A DNA stretch of 59,736 bases, the filler included, from Basidiobolus ranarum (lineage: Eukaryota): assembly GCA_040143965.1 (NCBI GenBank). It is 6 parts of 6 records of this genome, joined end to end, with 100 filler letters (N's around TTAATTAATTAA, not from the genome) between each part and the next. Parts side by side here need not be neighbours in the genome. Positions count along the whole stretch, not along the records: positions 39,919 to 49,784 come from JASJQH010007647.1; 5 more parts are not named here. One strand, written 5' to 3'. Below are positions 5,048-59,550 of the stretch, one piece after another. The notes beneath the pieces were generated by a model. It did no database searches and had not been told where the DNA came from. It saw nothing but the letters and a program-made list of their open reading frames with translations. How positions within the stretch are numbered: position 1 is the first letter of the stretch; every line of letters begins with the position of its first letter. Both the position numbers and the translations under genes were made by a program.

Positions 5048-5396
5048 TGTAGAAAATTAGCATTGCATAAACACCTATATACTCATTTATAGCTTAGTTT
5101 CCAGCTATCCTATGTTTTACCCAGAAATTACTCACTATATTCAATTATAATTTACTTAAAATAGTGATACCTACTTAGAAGCACACAGCAATATAGATTT
5201 TTCGAACCAGTCCTAGAACCTCCAGACTTTGGACCCATGCTTCTGAGACCCTCCTTTACAAAATTTACATGTTTTTTTGTTTACATATGATAAAACTATA
5301 AATGTCAACTTTCAACTCAACAAATCAATTAGTAAAATACAGCAAGTCTTCCAGTTCTCCAAGACATTTCCAACAGACTCTCAAGATACTCTAACA
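5048..5396 (+). mobile_element. Solo LTR, family A (decayed copy)
   Basis: TGTAGAAAATTAGC...CTCTAACA, similar throughout to 6213-6517. Flanks AACTA/AGCTG could be a TSD with two transitions. Confidence 0.6.
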
Positions 5397-6212: not shown

Positions 6213-6517
6213 TGTTGAAATTAGCATTGCCTAAACACCTATATAGTCATATATGGCTTAGTACTTAGTTATCTTATATTTCACCAAGATATTACCCATT
6301 ATTCTCAATCAGAATTTATTTAGAAGTTCTTGGATATATAGATTTTCCAACGAAGCCCCAAACTTTGCACACATGTTCCTAGGACCTTCCTTAACATATT
6401 CTACACGTTAGTTTGTTTACATCTTGACAAAACTATAAATGTCAACTCAATAAGTGAAAACCACCAATTTCTCTAATTCTCCAAACCACTTCTAACAAGC
6501 TCCCAAATACTTTAACA
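6213..6517 (+). mobile_element. Solo LTR, family A, with 5-bp target-site duplication
   Basis: Starts TGTTGAAA and ends TTTAACA, flanked by ATATT on both sides (6208-6212 and 6518-6522). Related copies occur elsewhere in the window. Orientation is arbitrary. Confidence 0.8.
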
Positions 6518-9884: not shown

Positions 9885-9984
9885 NNNNNNNNNNNNNNNN
9901 NNNNNNNNNNNNNNNNNNNNNNNNNNNNTTAATTAATTAANNNNNNNNNNNNNNNNNNNNNNNNNNNNNNNNNNNNNNNNNNNN
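9885..9984. other. Artificial contig-joining spacer 1
   Basis: 44 N + TTAATTAATTAA (stops in all six frames) + 44 N. Confidence 0.98.
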
Positions 9985-19865: not shown

Positions 19866-19965
19866 NNNNNNNNNNNNNNNNNNNNNNNNNNNNNNNNNNN
19901 NNNNNNNNNTTAATTAATTAANNNNNNNNNNNNNNNNNNNNNNNNNNNNNNNNNNNNNNNNNNNN
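19866..19965. other. Artificial contig-joining spacer 2
   Basis: Same 100-nt N/TTAATTAATTAA/N linker. Confidence 0.98.
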
Positions 19966-28444: not shown

Positions 28445-28727
28445 TGTTGAAATTATTTAGGGAGAAATATTGGGCTGGCCAGGATTTGAACCTGGGACCT
28501 CTTTCACTCTAGCAAGGTGCTCTAACCACTGAGCTACCAGTCCTTGTATGCTTTGCCTATATTGCTAGGGAACCTTAACCTAGTCTGTCAATTCATGGTA
28601 CTTTGGCATTTCCACTTTACAAGCAACTGATTGGCATTTCCACTTTGTGTTCAGATGTAGTCACCATACTCCACATTTTCCTCTTTGGGAATTACTGCTT
28701 GTATCACAAGTCACCAGACTTTCAACA
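28445..28727. mobile_element. 283-bp solo-LTR-like element containing a tRNA-like sequence
   Basis: Perfect 8-bp inverted ends TGTTGAAA...TTTCAACA, with a 5-bp TSD GAATC at 28440-28444 and 28728-28732. Confidence 0.85.
28471..28543 (-). tRNA. tRNA-like sequence or tRNA pseudogene (73 nt; nominal anticodon AGA but short variable loop)
   Basis: GGACTGG TA GCTC AGTGGTTA GAGC A CCTTG CTAGAGT GAAAG AGGTC CCAGG TTCAAAT CCTGG CCAGCCC A. The D and T arms and A/B boxes are intact; the acceptor stem has 1 mismatch and the anticodon stem has 2. Confidence 0.7.
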
Positions 28728-29843: not shown

Positions 29844-29943
29844 NNNNNNNNNNNNNNNNNNNNNNNNNNNNNNNNNNNNNNNNNNNNTTAATTAATTAAN
29901 NNNNNNNNNNNNNNNNNNNNNNNNNNNNNNNNNNNNNNNNNNN
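29844..29943. other. Artificial contig-joining spacer 3
   Basis: Same linker. It truncates the NRPS that runs into it. Confidence 0.98.
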
Positions 29944-32900
29944 TACAATCATGAATACTGATTTATCAAGACAGAGTGGCACCATCGATTCTGGACAAAC
30001 ACCGAGATTGATCAAATGATGAGCCAGTTTGTTGGCCCGTTGGTTGAGTTGTGCATAGGTAAAGTATTCTGTCGTTTCAAACTGTACTGCTATGTTCTCT
30101 GGATGGAGTAATACAGTTTGTTCATACAACGAATGAATACATATCGTCTTTACATCATCTCTCAGTGAAGCTTCTTCAGATGCGATACTTTTCCCGACGA
30201 CATTGGTATGAAAATCTTCAAAGCGCTCTTTCATCTGCAACTTATTCGTTGTGAAAGATTTGATTAAGTCACTTTCAGTAGAAGACATGGCTGGAATGCA
30301 CCCCATTTTAACTTCATTATCTACGCCGATGATCGCAACGATCACAACATTCAATCGATCTAACAGGCAACTTGCCAGTTTGTTCGTTAGTGTATCCTGA
30401 TTATAGTCTAATCGAAAACAAAGTTTTTCATTCTCCGTCCAAGCATTTAGGCAAAGTCTATATTCGGTAGGTTCTATTATTTGTTCCGCCTCAAAGGTCA
30501 CCAGATGCTTGCTATCAAGCTCCACACTATCTTTAGCTGGCATTTGAAAATTGAGAATCGCATCAAATTCTACAGAGTTTTCTGTGAGCCGGCACCATTG
30601 CTTAATCCTTTGTAAAGCACAATTTTCAAAAGGTATTCTTGATATCGTATGTTGATGGATTCCTCGCAACCAATGTAGTACTGTATCATCTTCATTGTAT
30701 TGGATTCTAAATGGCAAGGTATTGATACATGGGCCAACAACTTGATCGATATGTTTCATCGGTATATTACGACCATTGGTGATAATTCCATATATAAAGT
30801 CATCCTTTTCGTAATAAGGTCGTAGTATCAAACCCCAAGCTGCTTGTAGAAGAGTTAGTATAGTAATACCCGATTTTTGAGAGAAATCTTTCAAAATCTG
30901 TGTAGGAATTTCACAGTTGGATGAAAACTGGAGACATTTGACGTGAGGACCCATATTACCGAGCTTTGGAAAGTTGCAAGGTTGTATGTCGGCCAAGTAA
31001 GTTGCCCAATAATCGGACGCTTTTTCATTGTTGAACGATTCACCTTCTTGGATACAGAATGAAATGTAGTTTTTGTAGGGGATGAACCCTGGTCTTGTGA
31101 AGTTGTTGTAAGTGGCATCCAAAACAGCCATTGTTATTTTATCCGACCAACCATCATTAATAGCATGATGGCGACTAATTATCATTCGATTTCTTACTCC
31201 ATGCATCAAGCACAAGCGTATATTAGGTTTACCTAGTGGGAATCCTTGTGTTATATCGTCTTCAAGATATCTCTTCAAACGAATGTCGTTTTCCTCATTG
31301 TCTGTGAATATATGGCTTATCTCTATGTAGAAGTGTCGCAGGATGATTTGAAGGAATGTCCCTGGAATCGTCGCAGTATGCGGATTGGTAATAAATACTG
31401 TCCTTAATATTGGTAGATCTCGAATTGTACTTTTCCAAGCAGAGAGAAGCCTGTCAGAATCCACTCCACAAGGCAAATTATAAATATCTTGTACGTGGTA
31501 AAAGGAGGCTGATCGAATATTTCCAATGATAAGGCCTTCCTGTATAGGCGAGCAAGGATATAAATCTTCAATATTCTGCACCAGATCATCACCATAATGA
31601 GTTGATATATGCCTCATGAGTTTGTCTAACTGACATCCATTTAAATTTAGCAAAGGAATATCAGAGACCGTTAGCTCTCTTTCCTTTTTGTTTGCACAAA
31701 TAGCAATAATTTCCATCATATTTCTCCGCCAAGACTGTAGCCACTGATTGATCTGGGTATCTTGATGAAGCTCATTACTATAGGATATCGAGGCACACAA
31801 GTGATTACGCTGTATTGTGACCTCAACTTCGATGGCATTCATTCTTCTCCATTTGGGGCCACACATGTTCAAGTCGACTGTGTACTCGTTATCAACTTCT
31901 TGAAATAGAGAGTCACTCTTCTCTAAATACTGAAATCGCCCGAAATAGTTGAAGCCCACCTGCATGCTATCACTGCTATAGCTTGACGATTGTTCTTTAT
32001 TTAAGTAGCGTAGAAGACCGTAGGTAAAGCCGTTGTTAGGAATGGTCCTGCGTGTATCCTTGGTCTGCTTCAGTACATCTATAATAGTGTCCTCTGGGTT
32101 GCTTTCGATAGTAATAGGATATATCGAAGTGAACCAGCCAACGGTTCGAGAGATATCGAGTGAATCATCCCACGGTTCGCGACCGTGACCTTCAGTTGCG
32201 ATTGTAATCGAATTTACATTAAATGTTTCACAATACGAGGCTGAAAGAGCGGAAAGCATGATATCCACTGCTTCGGTACTGTAAGCATCATTACTACGGC
32301 CAAATAATAGATCCGTATGTTCGCTATCTAGAGTAAACGATAAAGTGTTCACCGTTTCCATGGTATTTAAGGATAACTTGGATGTATCAATGTTTAAAGG
32401 TTGTATTGCTATATTTTTTGGCCAGTCTTCAGAATTCAATGACTCAGCATGAGTCTTTAAATGCTTGCTCCAGTTCCTGAATGACAGTGTTTTGTAAGGC
32501 AGTGATTGTCCGTTGAGTAATCTTTCTAGGTCTTCCCAAATAATACGCCACGAAACTAGATCTATAATATAATGATGAATTGTCATGAACATCAACTGTT
32601 TACCACTAGGGAGATCATAAAGTATAAAGGAGGATACTGGTCCCGTTTCGATATTAATACGTTGTTGCACCTGTGATATATTTGCTTTCAGCTCTTCGAT
32701 GTTGTAAATCCGGGCTTGTTGAACCTGCGTGTTGCTCTGCTCATTGCTCGCTAACCATTGTCTCCAACTTCCATTTTCGCAAGAGAAGCGAGCTCTCAAT
32801 ATATCATGATGACTTATAAGTTTATAGAGAGCTTCTTTTAATGCGGGTGTTTCTATAGAATGTCGCATCCTGACCAACCACGATAAATGAAAATGATGGA

Positions 32901-35575
32901 TATTTGGTTGCATAACTTCGAAAAATTGATGTTGAATCGGAGTCAGTGGAATATCAGTTCCTTCGTCGTGGATCTCCTCTATCTTTTGTTTCTCTAACGC
33001 AAAGGGCGTAAACTGGGTATAATTTACAAGCTGATGTATAGTCGGATGTTGTAGAATACTGTGAACAGATACTTCTACTCCTTTCTGACGACATTGTGAG
33101 GATATCTGAATTGCAGAAATAGAATCACCACCCAAGTGATAAAATGAGTTCCCAGTACCTATAGACGATTTCTCTACATTCAGTACATCACTCCAAACTT
33201 CTTGCAATAGCTTTTCCATGGGGGATGAAGGTGAGTCTGTTACCTCTTTCACATCTCGTTTGAAGTTCCCACTTCTATATAGCATCTCTAGCATTTTGAA
33301 GTCCACTTTCCCGCTTGTATTAACTGGCATTCGTGTTAGAGGTATCCATACAGTTGGAACCATATATTGTGGTAATTTCTTTCGTACTAGATCTTGAACT
33401 TCAACGAGCGCCGAAAGATATTCATCTTGAATAATCGAAATTGCTTCACCTTCCGAGATAGTACTTTCGAAAGTCAAGAAAGCTACTAGGGCCTTGTTCT
33501 TCGTGGATTCCTTATTCAGAAGCCTTACCGAAGCCCTACTGACATGAATAGATTCATTTAATGCGTACTCTATCTCTTCTATTTCGATCCTTAAACCATT
33601 TAGCTTAACTTGGTTATCTTTACGGCCAAGAATGGTGATCGAGCCATCAGGATTAAATCTTCCCAAATCCCCAGATTTGTACAAACGTTCCCCAGCAGAG
33701 AACGGAGAGCATACGAAGGATTTTTCTGTAAGTTTAGGCCTATTCAAATAACCTCGAGCAAGTTGGGGACCTCCAATACAAAGTTCACCTACTGCTCCTA
33801 AAGGGATCAGTTCCAATTTATCGTTAAGGATATAGACTTTGTTGCGGCCCATCGGCCAGCCAATATTAGTGCATGAAGTCGATTGTTTCACTAAATTATT
33901 TACAATAGCATATACAGTTGTTTCAGTTGGGCCGTAACCGTTATAGAATTTTACTTCACCAGCCCAAGCATTGCGGACGTTTTTTGTGAGCATCTCACCA
34001 CCCTGTTGAAGTAGCTTAAGCGTAGGGACTTCTTTCGGATTCAACAGAGCGGCAACAGTCGTAGTTAATTGTGCTGCGGTAACCTTCATGAGACAAGCCA
34101 TCTTGGATAGATTTGTAAGTAGATTACTCTTTGAAGCTAAACATATTCGAGACCCTGTGATCAGATTAACGAATATATCCAGTATCGATGCGTCAAAGGT
34201 ATAATTAGAGAACTGTAGGAAACGATCGTCCGGGGTTAAATTAAGAATTTTTTGATGCGCAATTGCGTAGTTAACGACACTACGGTGTTCCAACATTACT
34301 CCTTTGGGTTTTCCAGTAGAGCCTGAGGTGAAGATTAGGTAACAGAGATTGGAGGATATTAACTCAGGAACTATTGGATCTGATTCGGGGGCATTGTCGA
34401 GTGCAAGATCACTTCGATCCATCAATACCAGGTGAAGGTCAGACCATGCTAGAAACATGCTTTCCTGATCTTTGGTTGTAATGCAAATCTTGGCCTTGGT
34501 ATCCTCCAAAATAAATTCAATTCTTTCTCTAGGGTATTCAGCATCCAGGGGTACATAAGCCGCTCCAGCTTTTAGAACTGCCAATATACCAACTATCATA
34601 TCAATGGATTTCTCAATGCATAATGCCACCACCTCGTCAGGTACCACACCCCACAGTATAAGAGAATGGGCTAGTCTATTGGCACGTCTGTTCAACTCGG
34701 AATATGTGATCAGTTCCTTATCTTCGAATTGAAGAGCAACATTATCAGGTGAATCTTTCACTTGACTTTCGAAAAGATAGTGTATACAGGTATCATCGTT
34801 GTAATCAGATGTGTCTTTCTGCCATTCAGTCAAAAACAAGTATTTTTCTCTATCTGAAGTCCAATTCAATGCCCCCAATGGAGAATCAAGGTTATTAATC
34901 AATGTTTGAGCCACATGCAGGAACTGCTCTATAAGGAGTAGACCTTGGTCTTGTTGAAGGTAGTTGTCCGCGAATGTTAGTTGAAGATTTATGCTTTCTT
35001 CACTACGATTCCCTTCAATACAAATGGCAAACTACGGTAATAGTGATGATAAGGTTAGTATTGATAATCGAGTGTTAATGCTAGAATAAGTATACCTCGA
35101 GATTTTGGGCGTCTAGTGACTTTTCCTGATCACTGAAGATAACACATGTATTGATTTTGGTCAGATTTTCGTTGTATAAGCAATATGGACCTTCGTGAGT
35201 GAATCGAGTGTCTGCTATCTGCTTCAACCAAGTAGCAACAGGTAGACTATCGGTTTCATGACCAAAGGTTGACTGGAATATGTACAAATTATTTACACCT
35301 TTCTCGCAGAGTTGTGGGGAATGTATGTTTACGCCAAAGGCTACATCTGGATTTCCCGTGTAGTAGTGCAACAGAATTACCCAAGACGCGTATAGTATAG
35401 ATTTATCAATAGCCACTAACTCTTTCAACGCTGGATGTTCATAAACAAGACTCAAAGATATAGCCTTTGTTCTGGCAATTCGAAACGAATTGATTTTTGC
35501 TGTTTGGGTATTTTCAACATCAAGTAAGCGTGGGAATTGGCAAACACTAAGACTTGAAGAATTCATTAGGGACAT
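29944..35575 (-). CDS. Non-ribosomal peptide synthetase, 5' part: partial C - A - T - E - C - A (3' end lost at contig edge); one intron at 35032-35095
   Basis: Exon 1 is 35575-35096, followed by a GT...TACTAAC...TAG intron, then FAICIEG... in frame with the 1672-aa ORF. A motifs: YLIFTSGSTGKPKG, YGPTE, YKSGDL. T: LGGDSIS. E: HHYIIDLVSW, EGHGRE, RTVGWFT, FNYFGRF. C: HHAINDGWS. Second A start: TYAQLNQRANKLAH. Confidence 0.95.
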
Positions 35576-37774: not shown

Positions 37775-38434
37775 TCAAGCACTTTTTCTATCTTTAATTT
37801 GATTTCTCCTGATATTCAAGATAAAACCTAAAATGAGACCGGGAATAACAAACGAAGAGATAATAATAATAGCAGAGTATCTTCTTTGTAATGGTTCCGA
37901 GAGTTGAAAGATCTCTTTGAAGAGTTGAGCTGTGCTTGACTTTGAGTTGATGTGAAGCAATAGAATCAATCCGTTGGCAGTAAGTGTCACTGGATCTTTG
38001 GAAGAGAATGCAGCACAAGCCAAACAAAAAGCCAATTCAAAATAAAATGCAAAGGTTGGGAAGGCACCCCACATATTGGTTCCGCCTATCATGATCTTGG
38101 AGATGGGATCCAAGGGTAAATCTTGGTTATGGACCATCATATCTTCTATGAAATGAGAAAAGGAAGCCAAAAACCCAGGAGTATAAGAGCCAGTAGCAGC
38201 GCCATAGATCAAGGACAGTAGGACGGATCCGATCAAACTGTGAGTGTAGTTACAGTGAATATCAAAACCATTAATGCCGGCTTGAGGGTTAGGAGAGAAC
38301 CCTTCGTATCCAAGATATGTCATTGCACCAAAGCATACGTCAAGGAAGCCTACACCAAGTGCAAGGGTATATGGCGAAGTGTTCGGGTAATATTTTTGCA
38401 AGACGGAAGTTAGAGCAAAATGACCTGCAAACAT
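37775..38434 (-). CDS. Integral membrane putative metal-dependent hydrolase (YdjM/LexA-binding inner-membrane hydrolase-like), intronless
   Basis: The His/Asp pattern MFAGHFA...FLDV...YTHSL...SHFIED..VHNQDLP lies within multiple hydrophobic helices and resembles bacterial proteins with MFxGH...SHSL...SHxxLDxxxHxPDLP. Confidence 0.7.
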   Translation of the reverse strand: MFAGHFALTSVLQKYYPNTSPYTLALGVGFLDVCFGAMTYLGYEGFSPNPQAGINGFDIHCNYTHSLIGSVLLSLIYGAATGSYTPGFLASFSHFIEDMMVHNQDLPLDPISKIMIGGTNMWGAFPTFAFYFELAFCLACAAFSSKDPVTLTANGLILLLHINSKSSTAQLFKEIFQLSEPLQRRYSAIIIISSFVIPGLILGFILNIRRNQIKDRKSA

Positions 38435-39818: not shown

Positions 39819-39918
39819 NNNNNNNNNNNNNNNNNNNNNNNNNNNNNNNNNNNNNNNNNNNNTTAATTAATTAANNNNNNNNNNNNNNNNNNNNNNNNNN
39901 NNNNNNNNNNNNNNNNNN
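39819..39918. other. Artificial contig-joining spacer 4
   Basis: Same linker. Confidence 0.98.
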
Positions 39919-40087
39919 GTAACAAGGAGGCTGGAAATCAAAAAACCAAGGATTGGAGAGGTTTTTCTTTTCTTTGATGAAAATAAAGTAGAGTATACAG
40001 AGGCATTCATCACCATTGATAGATGCAGCGTTTCAAATTCAAACCATTGTTGCATAAAACCTGTGATTTTGAATGATCTCTGCAGGC

Positions 40088-40200
40088 CTATCTCATCTCT
40101 ACATCATCTATATTTCATATCTATCTCATCTCTGCATCATCTATATTTCATATCTATCTCATCTCTACATCATCTATATTTCATATCTATCTCATCTCTA
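40088..40200 (+). repeat. Minisatellite, 33-bp unit x about 3.4
   Basis: ctatctcatctct(a/g)catcatctatatttcatat repeated. Confidence 0.93.
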
Positions 40201-40915
40201 TCCTATCTCCTATTAGGGGGTATGTGGGTAGAATAGCAAGATTAAAGCCGCTAGAAAGCGGATAATCACTTATTATATGTTAAGTAAAACAAGATACAGT
40301 AGTACTTGGGCCATGTGGATTATGCATGGGTTTACTATTGATTTTCTATTGATGCTTACTGACTTTAGCATTATTCAATTTAAATAAAACATCTGCCATG
40401 GTCTTTATCATCCCTAAGTCTAGGTATACTAAAGAGTTTCTAAGCGGTACTCGCGATAGACACTGGATATTGCTTATATCCATTAAAAAACTATGAGTTA
40501 GAAAACATACCACGTAAACCTATGCAACATCTGCCTACTGTGGTGAATTACTCCTGCAAATGCAAAGTAAAAGCGTTGCTTAATAAGAATTTGTAGTTCA
40601 TGCCAATAGGTTCAACATTGACACATCTAATGCACCAATAGTGATAAGTATTCAAAGTCACTCATTCTGAGAGAGAATAAAAAAGTCATTAGTTGGGCGA
40701 ACAACAGAAAGGTTAATGAGAATCTGGTTAAAGACTTCGCTTTCCTAATTATTGTTGCATCTTTCCACTCTAGGACTTGTTTGTTACTATATGAACTGAA
40801 CCATAACGCTGCAGGGAAGAGGCAAGGCTCTAATTTTTACTTATTGAACTGGCTCTCGAAGGAACTGAAAAAGAGAGTTATTCATAAATAGTACTAAGCA
40901 TTCTTCCTGATCGGT

Positions 40916-41035
40916 CTATCTTAAATGTATTATTGTTACAAGTAAATACCGTAACTTTGACTATCTTAAATGTATTGTAACGTAACTTTAACTATCTACA
41001 TGCATTGTTGTTACAAGTAAACACCGTAACTCTGA
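40916..41035 (+). promoter_or_regulatory. Three imperfect direct repeats about 250-370 bp upstream of the NRPS ATG
   Basis: ctatcttaaatgtattattgttacaagtaaataccgtaactttga / ctatcttaaatgtattgtaacgtaactttaa / ctatctacatgcattgttgttacaagtaaacaccgtaactctga. A TATATAAA lies at about 41225. The repeats are seen; a regulatory role is inferred. Confidence 0.45.
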
Positions 41036-41282
41036 GTTGGTTTCATATAATCTAAAATTTTTGTATTTCAAGAAACTAACACAACAACGCTATACTGATG
41101 CATAATCCCTGATTGCATTAACGCCCTGAGCCCTCATGCACTCTACTAAGGAGATATTTGACCTGTGACGATACTTTTTCTTCGGCAAGGTGGATAACAC
41201 AAAAAAACTCCTCCAAATTATTCTTATATAAAGTGTTAAATATACTAATTTCAGCACAGACTTCAATAACACTAAATAAGTG

Positions 41283-44200
41283 ATGAACAGACAATCTTTT
41301 TCATGTATTGTCATCGGTGGCACTACACTAACCATCGAATGTGCAAAACGACTACGTGCCGCCGGCCATATCATTCAGGCTGTGCTACCGACAGATCAGT
41401 TGGCTAAAAATTGGACTTTAGGCGAAGAAATATCTTGCGTAGGCACAGTAGAGGAGCTTAGCGCCGTTCTAGACCAGAGGCCAGCGGATGTGCTGTTTTC
41501 AATTGTTAACCCAATTATTCTACCACAGTCACTATTGAATAGGATGCGTCACACATTTAATTATCATGATGCTCCCTTGCCTCGTTACGCCGGAACCCAT
41601 GCTACTTCCTGGGCTCTATTAGAATTGCAAAGCACCTACGCAATTACCTGGCACCAAATTACCAATAAAGTTGATGCTGGGGATGTGTACGTACAGTATC
41701 CGGTACATATCGCTTCTACTGATACAGCTCTGTCACTGAACTTGAAGTGTTACCAAGCGGCGAGTAAAGGCTTCACTGAATTAGTAGAAAATCTTGCAAT
41801 GGGGACATTAAGACCTGACCCTCAAGATTTAACACGCCGAAGTTTTTTTCCACGTCATCGCCGACCTTTCGGCGCAGGTTTTTTGCGCTGGCAGCTAACG
41901 GCTCAGAATCTATCTGCTTTGGTGCGAGCTCTAAATTTTGGTGATTTTCATCCCAACTCGTTGGCTACACCCAAACTCTTGCTATCTAATTGTATCATAC
42001 ATGTGTTAAACTTGGAAATTCTAACAGAGCGTTCAGAAAATCCACCAGGCACCCTGCTGAGGATCGACTCTGATCGTTGGTATATAACTACGGGAAGCGA
42101 TACCGTTGCTATTAGCACATTCACCAGTCTTACCGGGGAGTCATTCGACCCTCAGAAGCTGGCACGACAATTAGATCTTCGCGCAGGAGACCATTTACCT
42201 TTGATATCAGATGCAGAGGCTTGCGTGCTAACTGAGGTTTATGAAAATTTATCCAAGCAAGAGACTTTTTGGGCAAGGCGCTTGCAACGTTTCAGTTCAC
42301 TTCATCCACCTTTCGATAGTGATGCGTCAGGTATCGTACGGAATTGGCAAACGACTGAATGGAATATTCCAAGCAATTTGTTGCACCTTTCGGAGGTTAA
42401 ACGTATTGAGTGCCTTTTGAGCTCTTTCATGATTTATCTGACACGAATTACTGAGAAGAAACGACTCAATATGGGATGGGCACCAATATTAACTAAATCA
42501 GTGATGGCAGATTTCTTAGCCAATGTAGTGCCATTGGAGATTGAAATCGGTTTACGGGATTGTTTTAATGGAGTTTGTGCAAAAATAGAGACTGAGTATT
42601 CACGGCTTATAAATCATTCAACATTTCCTCTTGACCTCATTGCACGTCACCCGGAGCTTCGCACTATCAGTGAATTGCGTTTGCCACGACCCTGGAAAAT
42701 CGTTATAGCCTTAGTACCAGACCGCACCTCAGAGGATATCAACAACGTTCCAGCTCAAGCCGTCACTCAATTCCTCAACGATGCGGCTCGCGGAGACTAC
42801 CTCACGATTCAATTGTGTTCAAAAGATGGAAGTTTTCGATGGATTTATGACCCAAAGTTTATAAACGATATACTCTTTGACACAAGCACGGACCCTGAAC
42901 TAATTAGTGTTAATAATGAAATCGGACACATGCCCCGTTTCTTGAAATTATTGGAAGCATTGACCAACGAACCCACACGCCCGATTGGAGATATCGATTT
43001 ACTTCATGTCAACGAACGACGTCAACTCCTGATTAATTGGAATAAAACGGAGAGAGATTTTCCCGAAAATCAAGGGATTCATCAATTATTTGAAACACAA
43101 GTTCAACGTGCACCGCATGCAACCGCGTTAGTATGCAATGATAAATCTTTAAATTATAGGGATTTGAATGCGAGTGCCAACCGCATCGCACATTACCTTG
43201 TAGAGCTGGGTATTAAGCCAGGCGACTACATTGCTACCATGATTGAGCGTTCTATGGAGCTGGTCGCTGCTCAATTAGCTATTCTTAAAGTGGGGGCCGC
43301 TTATGTTCCTATTGACCCTCATGCTCCCGTGGAGAGACAAACCTCAATAATTTCTGATTGTGCGGCTCGATTATTGATAACCAATGTGAATTCCAATGTT
43401 TCACTTACCAAGAACACGCGGTTATTCCGTATTCCTTCCATTCTCGAAAATACATTAGATACCTCGATAGCCAATCTTAATTTATTCTCTCCAGAATTGG
43501 ATGTGGCCTATGTAATGTACACTTCCGGCTCAACTGGCTCTCCAAATGGTGTGTTGGTGCCTCATCGAGCCATCGCCTCTCTAGTCATTAACAACGGCTT
43601 CGCTGACATCGGGGTCAATGATCGTGTTGCTTTTGTGTGCAATCCAGCCTTTGACGTAACTACTTTTGAAATGTGGGCACCTTTATTGAATGGGGGTACC
43701 CTGGTCGTCGTGGACCATTGCACTGTTCTGACACCTAAAACATTTGTGCAATTTTTGCAACAGCAGAAAATTAATGTCTTATTTTTAATGCCTGCTTTGT
43801 TAGCACAAATGTCGGAAGCACTACAGCCCATCTTTCCACAGTTAAAATATCTACTTTTTGGAGGAGATACCATCAATCCTGCAGTGATCAACAATATAAT
43901 TTGTAACACTCCTCCACAACAACTGATTAACGCATACGGTCCAACTGAATGCACTACCTTCGCTACATCATATGCAGTCCCTCTAAACAAAGAACAGCCA
44001 TCAAGTATCCCGATTGGGAGACCATTAGCGAACAAGCAGGTATATTTATTGGACGGGACAGGCCAACCAGTGCCACTCGGGGCGACGGGCGAATTGCACA
44101 TAGGCGGGGCCGGCGTCGCGCACGGATATCTAAATCGGCCTGAATTGACTAGCGAAAGATTTCTTCCCGATTCATTTAGTAAGAAAGCAGGGGCTCGTAT

Positions 44201-47200
44201 GTACAAGACTGGAGATCTGGGCCGTTACCTTCCTGATGGTAATATTCAATTTCTTGGACGTAAAGACAATCAGATTAAGATTCGTGGTTTTCGGATCGAG
44301 CCGGGCGAGGTAGAAACATTACTCGTTAAGCATCCCCAAGTTCAGGAAGCCATTGTACTGACAAGGGGCAAGGATTACAACAAGCACTTAGTAGCATATA
44401 TTGTAACGGAACACAAAGAGAAACTGCTTATCAACACGCTACGCGACTTGATTGCCGCTAACCTTCCTGATTATATGATGCCAGCCGCTTTCGTGCGTTT
44501 AAGCAGTTTGCCATTAACATCCAATGGAAAAATAGATCGTAAGGCGCTACCAGCACCAGACAGAGAAAACTTTACACAGAAATCCTATGAAGCACCGCAA
44601 GGAGAGATTGAGATCACACTGGCAAAGATCTGGACCGAGTTAATCAATTTTGATGAGATTGGCCGCCATGATAATTTCTTTTCACTTGGCGGGAATTCAC
44701 TTCTCGCTGTGCAGATGATAGAACGTCTAAGTCGCCTTAATCTAAAGATACCTGTACGTACATTATTCGAAAAACCGACACTCTGTGAGCTTGCTCAATC
44801 TATCCAACGGCATGAAGAAACCCTACCCCCCAGACTAATTAAGCCTGGTATCGAAAGAATCACACCAGATTTACTTTCACTGGTCAACCTCTCACAAGCT
44901 GAAATTGACTATATTACAGAAGTGATTCCTGGTGGTGTGGCCAACATCGAAGATATCTATGGATTAACCCCACTACAAGATGGAATTTTATTTCATCATC
45001 TCCTGGCCGATAATGGAGATCCCTATTTGGTCCTGACCCAAATGACTTTTGAAAGCCGGATGTTGCTTGATAAGTATCTCGATGTCATCCAGCGGATTGT
45101 GGATCGCCACGACATCCTGCGCACTGCCTTCATTTGGAAGAATACATCCACACCGGTACAGGTTGTCTGTCGTCAAGCATCGATTGTGATCTCTGAATTT
45201 ACTTTTTGTCCAACCAATGGTCCAATTCCCAAACAGCTATTAGAAAAATATGATCCCAGCAATTATCGCACTGACATAACCAAGGCTCCTTTGCTGAGTT
45301 TTGCCATTGCGCAAGAGAGTAATGGTCGCTGGTCTCTTCTTCAGCTGCTTCACCATCTCATAGGTGATCACTCTACGGTGGACGTGATGCAATCTGAGGT
45401 GGAAGCTTTTTTTAACCATCACGATTTACCAGCTGCGCAGCAGTTTCGAAACTTAGTTGCACAATCCCGCACAGATCTTAACAATAGGGATCACGAAAAA
45501 TTCTTTTCTGATATGTTGGGTGATGTTGATGCACCGACACTGCCATTTGGGCTTGCCGATGTCTACTGCGTCGGCGCACAGATCACAGAGTCACATCAAA
45601 TGCTATCGCAAGAGTTAAATGAACGACTTCGCTTCCAGTCCAAAATATTAGGTGTGACCTTAGCCAGTTTATTTCATTTGGCTTGGGCACAAGTCTTAGC
45701 ATGTGCTAGTGACCAAGATCGAGTGGTTTTTGGCACAGTCCTATTTGGCCGAATGAATGCAGGTGAAGGAGCAGACAAAGCAATGGGATTATTCATCAAC
45801 ACGTTACCTTTCCGTATAGATATAAATGAGCGAGGTGTTCGAGAAACCGTGTTACAGACCCATAAGCGCTTAGCAATGTTGCTTGAGCACGAGCATGCAT
45901 CTCTTCCTCTAGCCCAGCGTTGTGCATCCTTACCAGTCGGAGTACCACTTTTCAGTACACTTCTAAATTACCGCCACAATGCCACGAAACCTGGTGCAGG
46001 CTCTACCATATCTGGGGTTGAGATTCTGAGTACCAAAGAGCGCTCTAATTATTCATTGCTCCTTTCGGTGGAAGATTTTGGCCATTCACTGGGTTTGACT
46101 GCTCAAATCGTGTATCCATATGATCCAGCCCGAGTGTGCGATTACATGCAAAAGACATTACAGAGTTTGGTGGATGCTTTACAATATTCACCGAAAGTAC
46201 CTGTTCCACTACTTGAAATATTACCAACGGAGGAACGCAAAACTTTACTCGAAACAATGAATGAAACAGCATCACCGTATCCCAATCACCTCTGTCTTCA
46301 TCATCTGTTTGAGGATATTGTCGAGCACACGCCTCACGCTACTGCGGTAACATATGAGGATCGTGCCTTTAGTTATGCCGAGGTGAACGTGCGTGCAAAC
46401 GGTCTTGCGCATAAACTAATCGATATGGGTGTTCAACCAGATATGCGTGTTGCAGTATGTATGGCGCGTAGTCCAGAAACTGTAATAACTTTGTTGGCAA
46501 TTTTAAAAGCTGGCGGTGCGGTTTTGCCCCTTGATCCGATTTATCCGAGTGAACGACTTGTGAACATTCTTGTTGATGGAAAGCCAGTGATTCTGATAGC
46601 TGATGCAATAGGTAGAAAAGCCATAGGTGATAATACCCTTTGCTCGCTCCCTGTGCTGGCTCCAAATAGTATTCTTAACTCATCCACAACTAATCCGAAG
46701 GTAGAAGCTTTGACAGCAAAACATCTTGCTTATGTAATTTACACATCGGGATCCACTGGTATGCCGAAGGGGGTAATGATGGAACACAAAGCAGTAGTAA
46801 ACCTGATTCTAGCTCCCTCAGCTGGCTTTGAAATCAAGCCTTCCAGTCGGGTTTTACAGTTTGCATCTTTCGGCTTCGATGTAAGTCTCTGGGAAATCCT
46901 GTTAACCTTAAGTCGCGGTGCAAATTTATACATCCCAACCGATATTGCCCGTCAAGATCGCGATGAACTTTGGAAGTATCTAGAGAGAAACGAGATAACG
47001 CACGCAATATTACCGCCGGCGCTTTTGCAGAACGGGGATGATTTGCCAAGCTTAAGTAAGCCAATATCATTGATATTAACAGGGGAAGCGCCCAATTCAA
47101 CACTGATCCAAAACTTATTGCTTCGAGAAATGGTCCATCAGGGAGTCATATTCAATGCTTATGGCCCAACTGAAACGCATGTAGCTACGGTATGGGCAAG

Positions 47201-48860
47201 TGAGAGCAATACTCTTAGAAATGGAAAGGTATCCATCGGCCGTCCAATTGCAAATACTCGGATATATTTACTTAGCAAGCAAAGACAACCGGTGCCACTT
47301 GGGGCTATAGGAGAGTTATACATTGGCGGAGTCGGTATTGCGCGCGGTTATCTAAATCTCCCCGAGTTGACTGCGGAGAAATTCGTATGTGATCCTTTTT
47401 GTACGCTGGAAGATTCAATGATGTACAAAACTGGTGATTTGGCTCGTTATCTACCTGATGGCAACATAGAATTTTTGGGTCGCAATGACTTTCAGATAAA
47501 AGTTCGCGGATTTCGAATTGAGCCTGGGGAGATTGAAACTCTTCTCATGGAACATCCTCATGTACGGGAGTGTGTTGTACTTACACAAGATAAAGATTGT
47601 GATAAGCGCTTAATCGCTTACATCACAGCCGAATCCGACGAAAAGCTTTGTAGCAAGTTACGAGTCCACCTAGAAAGCAAACTGCCCGGATATATGATTC
47701 CATCGGCATTTGTACGGCTGGAAGCGTTTCCGCTGACATCTAACGGAAAATTGGACCGCCAAGCATTTCCAGAGCCAGGTGAAGGTGATTTTGCCCATAA
47801 GACATACGAAGCACCGAAAGGTAAAACTGAAGAAGCGCTTTCCATAATCTAGGCTGAGATTCTCAAACTGGACCACGTTGGCCGCTATGATGATTTCTTT
47901 GCCCTTGGCGGATACTCTCTGCTTGCCGTTAGAATGATAAGCCGTATTCGAACCATGTTGGGCATCGAAATTGCCCTACACACGCTATTTGAAGCCCCTA
48001 CTGTTGCCGAATTGGCACAAAGTATAAACAAAAAAGATATCGTGCACCAACCAAATTCCTTTTCAGTACTACTCCCTTTGAATACTAAAGGCTCGCGAGC
48101 TCCTCTTTTCTGTGTTCACGCCGTCTCTGGTTTAAGCTGGGGCTATATTGGCCTATCTAAATATTTAGGCCCCAATCAACCGATATACGGTCTACAGGCT
48201 CGCGGACTTGATGACGAGACACCAGTGGCGGAAACAATGGAAGATATGATTTCAGATTATATTCAGCAAATACGAAATGTTCAGCCTTCTGGACCATATC
48301 ATCTACTTGGATGGTCATTAGGCGTTTATATAGCTCACAGCATTGCGACATATCTCGAAGAGCAAGGTGAAGAGGTAGCGCTACTTGCTCTTCTAGATAT
48401 TAATCCGGAGTACTCATCGCCATATTTCGAAACGGAGGCAGACCGAGATTATTGGTACATCAGATTTCTTGATCGCTATGGCGACAAAGATGATCCTAAT
48501 GCCGGCGAATATTTATGGGAAAAGACTCATAATGTCATTAAGAATAATCTTAAGATATTAAAGGGGTTCTCCCCTCCCGTTTATAGCAAAGATGCACTTT
48601 TCTTTCGGGCAACAAAAGTAGAGAACCAGTCTATCCCGTTAGTGTCGCCTCACCTTTGGAAACCGTACGTTCTTGGCAATATTGAGATTTTTGACATAAA
48701 TTGCGCCCATCGTGACATGGACAGACCTTTACCAATTGCTGAAATCGCTCGTGTTGTGGCAAGAAAACTCAAGGTGTTAAAAAATAAGTCACAGCAAAAG
48801 ATGGAGTCTAATATTCCCGTACCTCCTGTCGTTGGCCCTGATGATCATATAGTTAGTTGA
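41283..48860 (+). CDS. Bacterial-type two-module NRPS: formyltransferase - partial C - A - T - dual E/C - A - T - thioesterase; one in-frame TAG at 47850-47852 (possible recent pseudogene)
   Basis: F: FNYHDAPLPRYAG...VDAGD. A1: YTSGSTGSPNG, YGPTE, YKTGDL, NGKIDR. T1: LGGNSL. C: HHLLADNGD plus HHLIGDH. A2: YTSGSTGMPKG. The frame continues through [30 protein letters not shown] into the 308-aa ORF, whose TE has GWSLG. No introns over 7.6 kb. Confidence 0.93.
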
Positions 48861-49179
48861 ATGCTTATGTGTGATAGTCTGATGCCATCGCTCGTTGAAC
48901 TTGGAAGTCTCATATTATACATGCTTTCTCCAATTGTCAATCAATCTTGCTGGTATTATGTAAATCTTTAATTGTTCGCAAGTATTTGTAACAATAATTT
49001 ATTTCTAATGTTCCAAATCGTTGAGAATTTCAAAAAAGAATCTATATATTTTGTAAACAATCATCCGGTAAATGAGAGTTAGGGGGGATAGAAAGAACTA
49101 AATAGTATGACTTAAAGCAGATCTAACTAATAGGAGTCTTAGGAATTGCAGTGGTTTGCTAAGCAACAGCAGAGAGTAG

Positions 49180-49320
49180 GTTTGCTAGGCAGCTAGGCTT
49201 TGTGTTCTGTGTTTAAATATTTGGGTGACTTTTGGAAGTAGTTTGGAGAATTGGGGAAATTGGTGGTTTTCACTTATTGATTTATTGAGTAGAAAGTTAA
49301 CATTTATACTTTTGTCAAGG
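49180..49320 (-). repeat. Partial copy of LTR family A
   Basis: Reverse complement of 6424-6517 (gacaaaa.tataaatg...aataagtgaaaaccaccaatttc...ttctccaaac). Confidence 0.75.
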
Positions 49321-49784
49321 GTTAGGGGGATGAAAAGTACCAGGTGGTATAGACTTTATTTAGCATATATACTAATCTAAACAAAGTGACAATCAAGATA
49401 TCAATCTTCTAAGATATTGTAACAAAACTAGATCAGATCCATACTTAACTTGATGACCAATGTAAGTCAGTTCTGAGGATGTATATATAGTGTTACGGGG
49501 CACAGGTAGTAAGTAGAAAGGAAGATAATCATCACAAACCAAATGGACAATAATCAAAAACCTGGAATAATGGGGATCAAAGAAGGTGTCTTGGAGGCAA
49601 GATATTGCTTTGAAAGGTATAGCTGGAAGTCTATAGCAACAATTTTGGGCTGTTTTGTTTGATACAGTTGTAAAGCTAATTCAGAAACTAGAGGATCATC
49701 TTGTATCAGTTTCCAGCAGGATAGTGGATTTGAAGATGGTGTGACTAGCCACTTCTTTTCCAGTGGATTTCTGAAGTCATTTAG

Positions 49785-49884
49785 NNNNNNNNNNNNNNNN
49801 NNNNNNNNNNNNNNNNNNNNNNNNNNNNTTAATTAATTAANNNNNNNNNNNNNNNNNNNNNNNNNNNNNNNNNNNNNNNNNNNN
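49785..49884. other. Artificial contig-joining spacer 5
   Basis: Same linker. Confidence 0.98.
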
Positions 49885-50377
49885 ATTACACAAACTCCTG
49901 AATATCTCAAACAATTGATTTACTTTTCTACTATATAAGTCACCATATACTCTTAAGAATAAACTAACTAAAACACACTATCATAAGTTGCTTCTGATAC
50001 TCAAAGCCTACCCTTCTTGTGTCAAGATCCTCCAACACATTGCCTAAGAATCTATATAGTCATATATAGCTTAGTACTTAGTTATCTTATAGTTCACTAA
50101 GATATTGTCCATTATTCTCAATTGGAATATACTTAGAATATTTTTACCAACTTAGAAGTTCTCTGATATATATATTTTTTTTAAACTTGTGCTAGAAGCC
50201 ATAAAACTGTACACACATTTTCCTGGGACCTTCCTTAACACATTCTACATGTTAGTTTGTTTACATCCTGACAAAACCATAAATGTGATCCTTCTACTCA
50301 ATAGATCAATAAGTGAAAACCACCAATTTCTCTGATTCTCCAAACCACTTCCAACAGGCTATCAAAGTGCTTGAACA
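49885..50377 (+). mobile_element. Nested LTRs: end of a family B LTR (49885-50037) inserted into a family A LTR (50038-50377)
   Basis: ...gatcctccaaca is followed directly by cattgcctaa..., which corresponds to about position 12 of the family A LTR at 6213. Confidence 0.7.
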
Positions 50378-56369: not shown

Positions 56370-59059
56370 AAAATAGTACCTTGCCCTCTTTTGTTTCATG
56401 TTTTGTTGAGTCGCACGTTCAATACATTGTATTCCATCCACTTCCTGCACTATCATCACTTACATATTGTTTATTTTCCATCAATTTCCGACCTTTTATG
56501 TGTTATATTTGCAAAATTCCTCAAAAACGTTTCCAACTCCGTCAACTTCCACATTATACCTCCCAAAAAATCCTTCCGTCCCCTTTCCTCATCCTGAAAT
56601 CACGACATCACGTTCGAATTAAATGAAAGCAACGCTTGCACCTAACAGCTGATAGGTTTTTGATTCTAAAAAGAAACGCATAAATTAGCCCTAACGAATG
56701 GATTATTGTTCTTTCCGTATCTCTTGATAGGTTTCGTGCTTTGTTTTTTTCGACCCCTCCCCTCCTCACTCCTCAAATGGTGGACTCACTAAAAGTATAC
56801 ATATTGATTTACCTTCGCATGCTAGATCGGTGATATAGCTCAGTAAATATTTAGAAGATGATTCTCGAACATTTACACATCGTCTACGCCAAGACACAAA
56901 TAAAACAGCTGGAAGCTGGAGATTGGTTAGATTCAATGCTATATCTTGATAACATGCAATTAAAAGAGAATGGTTTTCCTCTCTACGGATGCCCTGAAGC
57001 TAGACCGGAGATGATCGACATTTCTTGTGGATATGTTAGACTTGTGTCCCAAAGCTCGACGTTACCATCACATGTCACTCATTCATTCTAGCTACCTTAA
57101 CCCCTTTTTTTTGGCTACACAAAAATGATGGCACTTTGTTTAAATGAATGATATGCATATATTCTCCACTGATCAATTGCGTTCTTAGCAGCATGTGGAG
57201 TTTCATTGGATTCACTCACTATATCCGCATCCATCGTTCACACATTCCTAAGCGGGTTTTAAAATCAGGGGTGACTTTGATTGTACCAGTTTAACATCAT
57301 GTAATCTATACTGGAATAAGAGATGAACAAAGAGAAATGTCCGCTTGCATGTAACATAGACTATACGATACGGTAGGGAATAGAGTACATGGGAATGGGA
57401 ATTCCCTCGCAATATTGGATACAAGAAACGATTGCATGGATCCATTGTTAGGTCAGCGTGTTGAAGTGATACACTCATCTGGACTGAGACGCATCTGTTG
57501 GGGCTATGTTTCGCTTGTGTGTCCTCTTATACGTCTCATATGGTAATGATGTTGTATCGAATAGGATTGCTAATGCTATTGTATCGAATGAGTAATCTCT
57601 CGCTTGAAACATACGCACATTCTTATTACTAGATGTTCACTGACGTGTCCAACTTCACTCAACAACTAGGAAGATCAACACCAAAGAATCTAATATATAT
57701 TAGCAATAGCCACTTGCTCACCCACTCTATCCACACTACCTGCTCTACCTGCTTTTAATGGAATGCTCAACCGCTTTCTCATGGACCCGCCCACGTCATG
57801 AAGTTAATGTATCAAATCCGGAAATGTACTAATGGAATATCAATTCATTTTTGTTCCGAGATCTGGGGCCATTTAGGCATTTAGCCATTGATGCATTGGA
57901 AGGTATTCTACTTCGTCTTACAATTATCATGAAGTGCTTATGCAGTGTCAGGCTAACCCCCAACTGTAACCGCCGCCCTCGTCCGAACCCTAACCTTTAT
58001 CGACCCTCTGCAAAACACTCAATCTGTCACTCTTCCTTTCATCAGTAGGACGAGAAAAAAAATGATGATTAGGGTTACTACGTGATGATCTTAATATGAT
58101 GAGTGAGCATGATAGAGACTTTTTAAGTTAGAATGTAAGTAAATTTTTAGAATTATCGATAATCCAATGAAGTCTTTAACCAGATATATACTCATCAAAC
58201 TAGTTATCAACTTTAATACCGGTAATTTAAATTATGATACATCTTTTATTGTGTGTGGCTTTCTTCATTGGAAATATTTTAAACTATCGGTGAATTAAAC
58301 TGGTTTCATGATATAGATGCATCAAAATTCCCTCACTAAACTCACTCAAACATGATTTAGTTGGTTATTGTCGTCCATTGGTATATATGCTACTGAAACA
58401 ATTGAGTTAACTCATATATTGTAAAGCTTGAAAAATAATCACTGAACTAAATATCGTTTGCAGGTAATTTAGGATAACAGAGACAGGTAGTGGTGTTATA
58501 TATATCTTATGTAAGTAATAACCTTCAATACAAACTCTATGTATATTAAATAGACTCAAATGAAAATGTTACCACCTTACTCTTGAATATCCTAGCATTA
58601 TTTCATAATATGGATAAATATTTTAATGAAGGCAATTGGAGCTTGTAGAGTAATTTTAGAGACATCAGACTTTATTTTATATTAAGTCATATAATAGTAA
58701 GTTCATACCTCTATAGATCTCTGTCCCATTGGGAAATTGGTGAATGTTGCTAGATGTTTTAGGATTTTAGATGGAAATATTGTCAGTGATAGTGATTATT
58801 GTTGATTGGCTATTTGTTTCCTATATATACTGCTGAAGGTAACAAGCAAACAAGCAATGCTAGTATGTTTGGAGTAAGTACAAGCCTAATGAGTCATTCT
58901 TAGATAGAATTGGAAAGGTATCATACATACCTTGGTAAGGAAAGGGTCAAATATGAAGGTTGCAGGAACAAGTGTACCAAGCTTGGAGACTTCTGGGCAG
59001 GTTTGAGAAAATCATATTATTAAATAACTTCCAAGCTGATAAAAGTATTGCACAGAAAT

Positions 59060-59550
59060 TGATAAAGTGTTTGGGAGCCTGTTGGAAGTGGTTTGGAGAA
59101 TTTGAAAAATTGTGGTTTTCACTCACTGATTTATTGAGTTGAAAGTAAACATTTATAGTTTTGTCAATATGTAAGCAAACTAACATGTAGAATGTGTTGA
59201 GCAAGGTCTGAGACTTCTTTGAAAAATCATATATCTGTGAGCTTCTCAGTTGGTAAAACTATTCTAAAATATCCCAATTGAAATTGATGGGGAATAGTGA
59301 AATTTACTGAAAATATTAACATTAACTTGGAAGTGCACAGATATGTAGATTTTTCAAGATTGTGCTAGAAGCCTCAAACTTTGCACAAATCTTCCTAAAC
59401 CCTTTCTCAAGATAGGCCACATCTTGACTTACTTACATCCTGACAAAACTATGAATATCAACTTTCAACTCAATCAATCAATATGCAAAAATTGTAAATT
59501 TCTCTACTTCTCCAAACCATTTACATGAGGTGCCCAAGTCATTTAAATGG
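59060..59550. repeat. Two oppositely oriented partial copies of LTR family A
   Basis: 59060-59290 is reverse-complement-similar and 59340-59550 is direct-similar to 6213-6517 and 50038-50377. Confidence 0.7.

Follow-up and report, generated by a model that had tools for sequence, protein, structure and literature searches.

The window analysed here, a 59,736-nt stretch of the Basidiobolus ranarum assembly GCA_040143965.1, contains a nonribosomal peptide synthetase (NRPS) gene whose predicted product begins with a formyltransferase domain; we refer to it as the F-NRPS gene (positions 41283-48860, plus strand). Basidiobolus is a frog-gut fungus, and a formyl start of a peptide is unusual for a fungus. 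Taking the evidence as a whole, we consider it likely that the F-NRPS is a proteobacterial two-module NRPS that has long been resident in Basidiobolus and specifies a route to a formyl-D-dipeptide, and that the window copy has since been broken while a second copy, K7432_010635, is intact.

The gene forms a single frame of 2525 codons plus a stop, built from the open reading frames (ORFs) 41280/41283-47852 and 47853-48860, and its sole interruption is an in-frame TAG at their junction. A frame of this length cannot have arisen by chance in DNA of 42% GC. It contains no intron and no intron-sized gap, and it is collinear with the bacterial homologues. Pfam and NCBIfam searches together with structural models gave the full order F-truncated C-A-T-dual E/C-A-T-TE, where F denotes formyltransferase, C condensation, A adenylation, T carrier, E epimerisation and TE thioesterase. 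In Pfam, Formyl_trans_N matched residues 57-166 (2e-13) and Formyl_trans_C matched residues 199-288 weakly (6e-4), followed by two AMP-binding matches, two PP-binding matches of which the second is cut by the TAG, one Condensation match (1223-1656) and one Thioesterase match (1.6e-24). The catalytic motifs are all kept: F has FNYHDAPLPRYAG (Asn93, His95) and VDAGD (Asp131), each T domain has GGxS, and HHLIGDH, GWSLG and the TE His are present as well.

The F domain is a complete two-lobe formyltransferase of the Fmt/ArnA type that occupies residues 1 to ~310 in an AlphaFold model of residues 1-600 (pLDDT 85, pTM 0.83). In structural comparison, this part of the model fits Fmt and the ArnA transformylase (Foldseek E 2e-22, TM by target 0.82-0.84), and among PDB sequences the domain matched ArnA at 5e-13, Fmt at 7e-10 and the F domain of LgrA at 2e-6, the last over residues 52-183 only. 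It combines a Formyl_trans_N fold with the catalytic Asn-x-His and Asp expected of an F domain; in an alignment of 29 sequences, Asn93 and His95 are invariant and Asp131 is conserved in at least 90%. As in LgrA, it sits at the N-terminus of the initiation module, ahead of A1-T1. The compact LgrA-type build, a ~190-residue F placed directly on A, was not found; instead, an F of ~300 residues is followed by a half C of ~290 residues.

This half C (residues ~300-590) corresponds to the C-terminal half of a condensation domain, and the lobe with HHxxxDG is absent. In the window protein it aligned with positions 190-339 of the Pfam Condensation profile at E 4e-4, which falls short of the cut-off, and in the homologue P0037 the same region aligned with positions 189-456 at 49.5 bits. 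Its AlphaFold model (pLDDT 80) matched NRPS C domains in Foldseek at E 7e-10; the structural matches were Txo1, the starter C of RzmA, the C domain of LgrA and EntF, with E about 1e-9.

What defines dual E/C domains in Rausch 2007 is a second His motif close to the N-terminus, HH[I/L]xxxxGD. The C domain of module 2 has this motif as HHLLADNGD, conserved in 7 of the 8 aligned homologues, alongside the active-site motif HHxxxD in the form HHLIGDH, and its assignment as a putative dual E/C domain is supported. In the TE, the GWSLG nucleophile and the His in CAHRDM align with the homologues as in a type I thioesterase, and the best NCBIfam match is the C-terminus of EntF. Much of what the first-pass annotation had described therefore holds: the intronless frame with one TAG, the kept Asn-x-His and Asp, the dual E/C domain (by motif, C-domain search and tree) and the GxSxG thioesterase at the end. 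It had given the order as F-A-T-E/C-A-T-TE, in which the listed domains are correct but the half C between F and A was overlooked, and F differs in build from that of LgrA, which it had named as an example of a characterised F domain.

At the column of the TAG, which precedes the T2 serine by ~20 residues, Trp is present in each of the 8 aligned homologues; the alignment remains collinear across the site. Because it lies upstream of both the T2 Ser and the TE, the window product would end as F-halfC-A-T-E/C-A, with no second carrier and no TE. An uninterrupted frame through all essential domains, as expected of a functional gene, is thus missing from the window copy, which is probably inactive, a dead duplicate. 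We rejected a reading of the TAG as a sense codon or an intron, given the collinear alignment at the site and no sign of a variant code. A split-gene rescue through the ATG ORF 47934-48860 was also rejected: this ORF begins 3' of the T2 serine, so it cannot supply the carrier.

A full-length, uninterrupted relative with 81% identity to the window protein is K7432_010635 (P0002, 2506 aa). The first-pass annotation had proposed a search for intact orthologues in sister genomes; an intact relative does exist, but it bears the same locus-tag prefix and is therefore a paralogue in the same assembly rather than an orthologue in a sister species. P0002 also has a 5-residue tandem duplication, KGDPY, directly after the N-terminal His motif of the dual E/C domain (aligned to residue ~1244 of the window protein), with the motif still matched. 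In Tajima-type counts of unique changes, the window copy exceeded the paralogue with all four outgroups (112 vs 82, p 0.037; 98 vs 87, p 0.46; 89 vs 72, p 0.21; 111 vs 78, p 0.020). Decay of the window copy by repeat-induced point mutation (RIP) was rejected, as the share of GC-to-AT transitions was similar in the window copy (36 of 79) and in its paralogue (24 of 64; p 0.39), with ordinary RIP indices.

A recent inactivation of a redundant duplicate fits the TAG, the small rate excess and the lack of a RIP signature, and an assembly error fits them too. The gene may be intact in the organism, with the TAG stemming from faulty sequencing or assembly, or representing a single allele of a multi-copy genome, and the window copy would then make product as its paralogue would; we regard this as possible although clearly the less probable account. 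It weighs against a broken copy that the TAG is a single defect in 7.5 kb, with no frameshift and every catalytic motif kept, that the window copy is only slightly faster than its paralogue, without significance for two of the four outgroups, and that the assembly is strongly fragmented, with contigs of ~10 kb. On the other side, the deposited protein of this contig has 2189 aa and ends at the TAG, the excess of unique changes has the same direction with every outgroup, and assembly errors are not usually single-base substitutions.

The relatives of the F-NRPS are overwhelmingly bacterial in name. A search with residues 1-600 (E <= 1e-3) among 6991 candidates of 1388-4419 aa found 148 proteins, and in the best 120 of these the only fungal names, the window protein aside, were P0002 and P0010 (Entomortierella). 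Bacterial names in the same 120 were a Glomeribacter metagenome-assembled genome (MAG; 48%) and Sinorhizobium, Mesorhizobium, Bradyrhizobium, Photorhabdus, Xenorhabdus and Mycetohabitans (39-42%), with Acidobacteriota and others as more distant matches. F-halfC-A-T is a widespread conserved unit in this search. The F-halfC region of the window protein is 48-52% identical to Glomeribacter-type proteins and ~42% identical to Mycetohabitans. Over the full length, BLAST gave collinear matches to P0007 (52.8% over 2530 columns), Mycetohabitans sp. B2 (51.3%) and M. rhizoxinica (47.8%); the 90% cluster of P0007 holds Mycetohabitans endofungorum, sp. B3/B4 and 'Burkholderia sp. b13'. In a sample of 199 scored genomes of the bacterial family of G001, 10 gave a match at E <= 1e-20, and the full 1-600 unit was present in only six of these, all of 2.3-3.8 Mb.

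In a careful maximum-likelihood tree of F-halfC (23 rows, LG+G4), with which a quick tree of 38 rows agrees, the window protein and its paralogue form a pair (support 100/100, starred) whose sister is the Glomeribacter MAG plus a protein of the 2.3-Mb genome G097 (96/95, starred). This Basidiobolus-Glomeribacter group, which is nested in a proteobacterial clade, joins a clade of Entomortierella, Mycetohabitans, Photorhabdus and Xenorhabdus (99/100, starred) only weakly (81/79), and the rhizobia are next out. A separate search with the C domain of module 2 (C2) matched proteobacterial lipopeptide synthetases, whose C domains are 46-58% identical to it and in some cases bear an arthrofactin-type name; P0131 (Gryganskiella, a Mortierellomycete) was the only fungal name among the best 120 of 5534 matches. 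A quick tree of 31 rows groups C2 with the dual E/C domains of Proteobacteria (SH-aLRT 100, starred; branch length 1.28), where Mycetohabitans adjoins it (support 87, not starred), and apart from the 12 fungal-type rows, which comprise 11 C domains and one E domain and include the NRPS of piece 4 described below. The long-branch warnings in this tree fall on the fungal-type rows.

Both trees thus nest the F-NRPS among bacterial sequences, as expected of horizontally acquired bacterial-like NRPSs. On these sequence comparisons, including the 51-53% full-length collinearity with Mycetohabitans, an origin in bacteria by horizontal transfer is well supported, in line with the horizontal acquisition that the first-pass annotation had put forward, and the relationships point to a relative of the fungus-dwelling Burkholderiaceae (Glomeribacter/Mycetohabitans group) as the putative source lineage. 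Since F-halfC is nearest to the Glomeribacter type and the remainder to Mycetohabitans, no single donor emerges, which counts against this part of the reading. The reverse direction, in which the family would be native to fungi and passed to bacteria, or would be vertically inherited, has next to no probability in our judgement. F-halfC units do occur in two early-diverging fungal lineages, but these lie apart among many bacterial rows, and a single clade of Basidiobolus and Entomortierella was rejected in the approximately unbiased (AU) test (p-AU 0.0008, for a group chosen with a first tree already known); members of the family occur in rhizobia, Enterobacterales, Burkholderiaceae, Acidobacteriota and further groups, and the fungal-type C domains are distant.

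Under the preferred reading, a transfer from bacteria, the gene would have been acquired from a Glomeribacter/Mycetohabitans relative, recoded to the composition of the host and duplicated, and the window copy would then have received the nonsense mutation in T2. The loading unit was found on 95 plasmid records, of which 53 are predicted to be conjugative and four belong to Mycetohabitans. The homologous NRPS of Mycetohabitans sp. B46 stands alone, with a LysR regulator upstream, unrelated genes downstream and no other NRPS within 10 kb. Genes of a Tc toxin complex (SpvB/TcdB-type, TcA binding domain; L001 17868-27518) adjoin it. A pattern search for related loci with the divergent window query gave 11 pattern matches, none of which was confirmed. 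The Entomortierella protein, P0010 of E. beljakovae (1562 aa), has an F-halfC-A-T start and a reductase (R) end and is separate from the Basidiobolus pair in the same AU test; it represents either an independent capture or endobacterial DNA in the Entomortierella assembly.

The window consists of six pieces of 9884, 9881, 9878, 9875, 9866 and 9852 bases, in descending order, joined by spacers at 9885-9984, 19866-19965, 29844-29943, 39819-39918 and 49785-49884. Each spacer is composed of 44 Ns, TTAATTAATTAA and 44 Ns, and TTAATTAATTAA is a stop in all six frames. The lengths 9875, 9866 and 9852 coincide with those of the longest contigs recorded for P0251, P0001 and P0130, proteins that these three pieces encode. 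The pieces are separate contigs; hence features on different pieces are not linked, and the context of the gene is limited to the fifth piece (39919-49784). On this contig the gene has 1364 bases upstream and 924 bases downstream, and these flanks have 34-35% GC, as does the non-coding DNA of the other pieces. The GC content at third codon positions (GC3) is 0.388 in the F-NRPS vs 0.370-0.425 in genes on other pieces. Contigs 1 and 6 hold five matches to a ~100-nt repeat fragment of the downstream flank (75-88% identity; E between 1e-13 and 3e-28), and a mitochondrial-carrier fragment and a C2H2 zinc-finger gene lie on these two contigs. The sharing of a repeat had been claimed before and stands. 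For its designation as a long terminal repeat (LTR) family no support was obtained: none of the 10 scanned ORFs (each of at least 150 aa, the F-NRPS not counted) matched a reverse transcriptase or an integrase.

Residence of the gene in the fungal genome, also part of the first-pass annotation, is supported indirectly, by GC3, the composition of the flanks, the shared repeat and the paralogue. Some results pull the other way. The argument for residence is made of a ~100-nt repeat, composition and the paralogue; the 9.9-kb contig has no recognisable eukaryotic gene; and the F-NRPS has no introns, vs nine in each of the Mortierella precedents discussed below. If the contig were bacterial contamination or endosymbiont DNA, the wholly bacterial architecture without introns, the lack of a eukaryotic neighbour and the fungus-dwelling habit of the bacteria closest to it would all be explained. 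We nevertheless find such a source very unlikely, because a GC3 of 0.39 and the GC content of the flanks resemble the other pieces, the repeat also occurs on the contigs of the C2H2 zinc-finger gene and the mitochondrial-carrier fragment, identity to bacterial proteins reaches no more than ~53%, the same assembly has another copy with 81% identity and the frame has an in-frame stop. The flanks point the same way: no family match was obtained in flank ORFs (2 scanned of 5 ORFs of at least 70 aa), and no flank ORF matched a bacterial locus in these partial scans of 1.36 kb and 0.92 kb.

To examine the putative substrates, the pocket residues of the A domains were located by motif anchoring, at positions that we take to follow the numbering of GrsA. 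The A1 code is DVFFLGATFK in the window copy, DAFFLGGTFK in the paralogue, DAFFLGCTFK in Mycetohabitans and DAFWIGGTFK in one homologue. Among printed codes, DAFWIGGT is given for Val in surfactin synthetase (PMC10548584), and DAFFLGVTFK is given for Ile/Val positions of cyanopeptolins (PMC2533009). The code family DxFFLGxTFK / DAFWIGGTFK matches these printed codes, and a Val/Ile-like A1 pocket is therefore supported as a prediction, in agreement with the aliphatic pocket proposed earlier. The A2 code is less favourable to the proposed product. It reads DVWIITAVAK in both fungal copies vs DVWHISLITK in Mycetohabitans, neither of which had a match in our literature search, and the A2 substrate probably differs from that of the bacterial homologue. 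The start of the Mycetohabitans code, DVWH, resembles Ser codes.

These assignments suggest the following scheme. A1 would place a Val/Ile-like L-amino acid on T1, and the Fmt/ArnA-type F would formylate the amine of the T1-bound aminoacyl group with N10-formyl-tetrahydrofolate as the donor, while the half C would be purely structural and keep the C-A platform against A1. The dual E/C domain would then invert the formyl-aminoacyl-S-T1 to the D form and couple it to the amino acid that A2 has loaded, after which the TE would release N-formyl-D-Xaa-L-Yaa by hydrolysis. The predicted product would be N-formyl-D-(Val/Ile-like)-L-Xaa. The architecture, motifs, folds, phylogenetic placement, composition and stop are observed; formyl transfer, epimerisation, the substrates, the product and the loss of function are inferred. 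The F domain of LgrA formylates the aminoacyl-S-T, as outlined in a review (PMC10510592). A weakness of the scheme is that the present F is closer to ArnA/Fmt than to the characterised F of LgrA and has a half C before A, so that formylation of an aminoacyl-S-T would be by analogy only.

A simple formyl dipeptide would not result if F were a relic or used another acceptor than the T1-bound amino acid, or if the EntF-like TE oligomerised dipeptidyl units; we judge these outcomes to be improbable. They gain from the proximity of F to sugar and tRNA formyltransferases rather than to LgrA F, from the half C between F and A, and from the EntF C-terminus as the best match of the TE. The Ser-like start of the Mycetohabitans A2 code adds to this. 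In addition, LctF, a published Fmt-like enzyme, is described as formylating coenzyme A and not an amine. They lose from the broad conservation of F-halfC-A-T across the 148 proteins, from the N-terminal position of F as in LgrA, and from the Asn-His-Asp set and the surrounding folate-site motif, which are invariant or nearly so in the 29 homologues and would argue for retained catalysis.

The closest known counterpart of the F-NRPS is the stand-alone NRPS of Mycetohabitans (P0007 cluster; L001 9959-17614), which has the identical order F-halfC-A-T-E/C-A-T-TE with 2536 aa vs 2525 aa, 51-53% full-length identity, the same TE type and a similar A1 code. It differs in that it is bacterial, that its A2 code is distinct and that its F-halfC is only ~42% identical. 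The M. rhizoxinica member lies on an 823-kb plasmid record, and no product of the Mycetohabitans NRPS was found in print. LgrA (F-A-T; linear gramicidin; PDB 5ES5 and others) is alike in its N-terminal F, its Val-type A-T, the condensation that follows and the Asn-His-Asp chemistry. Its F, given as ~193 residues fused directly to A (PMC10510592), contrasts with the two-lobe F and half C seen here, and the F-NRPS, unlike the LgrA initiation module, has a dual E/C and a TE downstream.

Published examples of bacterial-like NRPSs exist for both Basidiobolus and Mortierella (PMC7466969; bioRxiv 10.1101/2020.08.21.262279). MpcA and MpbA of the early-diverging fungus Mortierella alpina (Wurlitzer 2020, bioRxiv 10.1101/2020.08.21.262279) are likewise described as bacterial-like and have dual E/C domains, a TE and a starter C that is truncated at its N-terminus and lacks HH; an origin from (endo)bacteria related to Burkholderia is reported for them, and their GC content and codon use match the host. 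They are pentamodular, have nine introns each and no formyltransferase domain, and their products are proven, whereas the F-NRPS has two modules, no intron, a formyl start and a broken copy. Acquired introns, absent here, are not essential to the class of horizontally acquired bacterial-like fungal NRPSs. The word 'formyl' does not occur in the available text of Wurlitzer 2020. Bacterial-clade ('surfactin-like'/MBC) NRPSs, bimodular models included, have been reported from Basidiobolus with a claim of transfer from bacteria (Tabima 2020, PMC7466969), and so the same genus and the same claim apply as for the window gene; 'formyl' is absent from the main text of that paper as available, and its supplements may list the counterpart of the gene. 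In a mollusc, the Fmt-A-T-R enzyme of the bursatellin locus (PMC11869996) is likewise encoded by a eukaryote, starts with a formylation domain and has bacteria as its closest homologues; it differs in belonging to an animal, in having one module, reductive release and introns, and it is closer in kind to the F-halfC-A-T-R protein of Entomortierella than to the window gene. In a literature search that reached few subscription journals, no paper describing a fungal NRPS with a formyl start came up.

The F-NRPS adds a formyl-initiating module to the bacterial NRPS parts known in fungal genomes. Among bacteria, the F-halfC-A loading unit is both frequent and conserved, and yet it is built unlike that of LgrA, whose F domain is the only one studied; its biochemistry could therefore be approached well through either the intact paralogue or the Mycetohabitans gene. 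The window copy itself, as a probable dead duplicate, is of small practical importance. A wider proposal is that formyl-starting NRPSs were captured at least twice from Burkholderia-related fungus-dwelling bacteria, in Basidiobolus and in a Mortierellomycete, and that an N-formyl-D-aminoacyl peptide of the paralogue acts on formyl-peptide receptors of the gut host. We think this combination very unlikely, and its receptor link is speculation; if it were true, the N-formyl peptide of Basidiobolus would be a fungal-encoded mimic of a bacterial danger signal in the vertebrate gut.

Table 1 Features of the F-NRPS gene and its contig, in coordinates of the window.
Feature	Coordinates	Strand	Evidence
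Contig carrying the gene, piece 5 of six	39919..49784		N44-TTAATTAATTAA-N44 spacers, piece lengths
F-NRPS frame, one internal TAG	41283..48860	+	ORF calls, Pfam, full-length BLAST
Predicted formyltransferase domain, residues 1-300, two lobes, Asn93-His95-Asp131 kept	41283..42182	+	Pfam, PDB search, AF2 + Foldseek
Truncated condensation domain, residues ~301-590, C-terminal lobe only, no HHxxxDG	42183..43052	+	Pfam, AF2, Foldseek
A1 adenylation domain, code DVFFLGATFK (predicted Val/Ile-like)	43053..44582	+	Pfam, pocket anchoring
T1 carrier domain, GGNS	44583..44837	+	Pfam, alignment
Putative dual E/C domain, HHLLADNGD + HHLIGDH	44880..46322	+	Pfam, motif, search, tree
A2 adenylation domain, code DVWIITAVAK	46323..47792	+	Pfam, pocket anchoring
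T2 carrier domain, GGYS, TAG-interrupted	47793..48047	+	Pfam, alignment
In-frame TAG, Trp column in 8/8 homologues, 5' of T2 serine	47850..47852	+	Frame, alignment
Type I thioesterase, GWSLG; His in CAHRDM	48048..48857	+	Pfam, NCBIfam, alignment
Dispersed repeat fragment common to contigs 1 and 6	49210..49319		Five matches, 75-88%

Several further features lie on the other contigs of the window. Piece 4 carries a fungal-type NRPS (29944-35575, minus strand) with a partial C, then A, T, E, C and the start of an A, which runs off the contig end. It is 100% identical over 491 compared residues (1110-1600) to B. ranarum K7432_010783 and has one 64-nt intron (35095-35032, GTATAC...TACTAAC...TAG); its relatives are five B. 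ranarum paralogues (45-60%), then Dimargaris, then SidD-like enzymes of Dikarya (25-27%). This identifies the assembly as fungal. A weak adenylation-domain-like fragment on contig 1 (187-477, minus strand) matches this NRPS with 29.6% identity over 98 aa (E 5e-7). A reading of the window as a single locus, with the A-T-E-C-A gene, an adenylosuccinate synthetase and the C2H2 gene as neighbours of the F-NRPS, was rejected, as these lie on other contigs.

The same holds for the ORF of a YdjM-like membrane hydrolase (37775-38434, minus strand), whose look-alike clusters in the Atlas are all bacterial and which may be another transferred gene: tblastn located it in none of 75 bacterial NRPS loci and in none of the genomes G001-G003, and its co-transfer with the NRPS was rejected since it is on a different contig. 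Two copies of a 153-nt repeat, 95% identical and oppositely oriented, lie close to the end of contig 4 (39563-39715) and at the very start of contig 6 (49885-50037). No target-site duplication was found at these inverted repeats, and the idea of a transposon cargo with terminal repeats is void, as the two repeats are on different contigs. A repeat family of ~340 bp lies beside the 153-nt repeat (50038-50377, 5061-5384, 6225-6517, 59058-59530), and the assembly probably breaks in the 153-nt / ~340-bp repeat. Contig 3 carries a Transposase_21 (tnp2/CACTA-type) ORF (25957-26589, minus strand) and a tRNA gene (28471-28543, minus strand).

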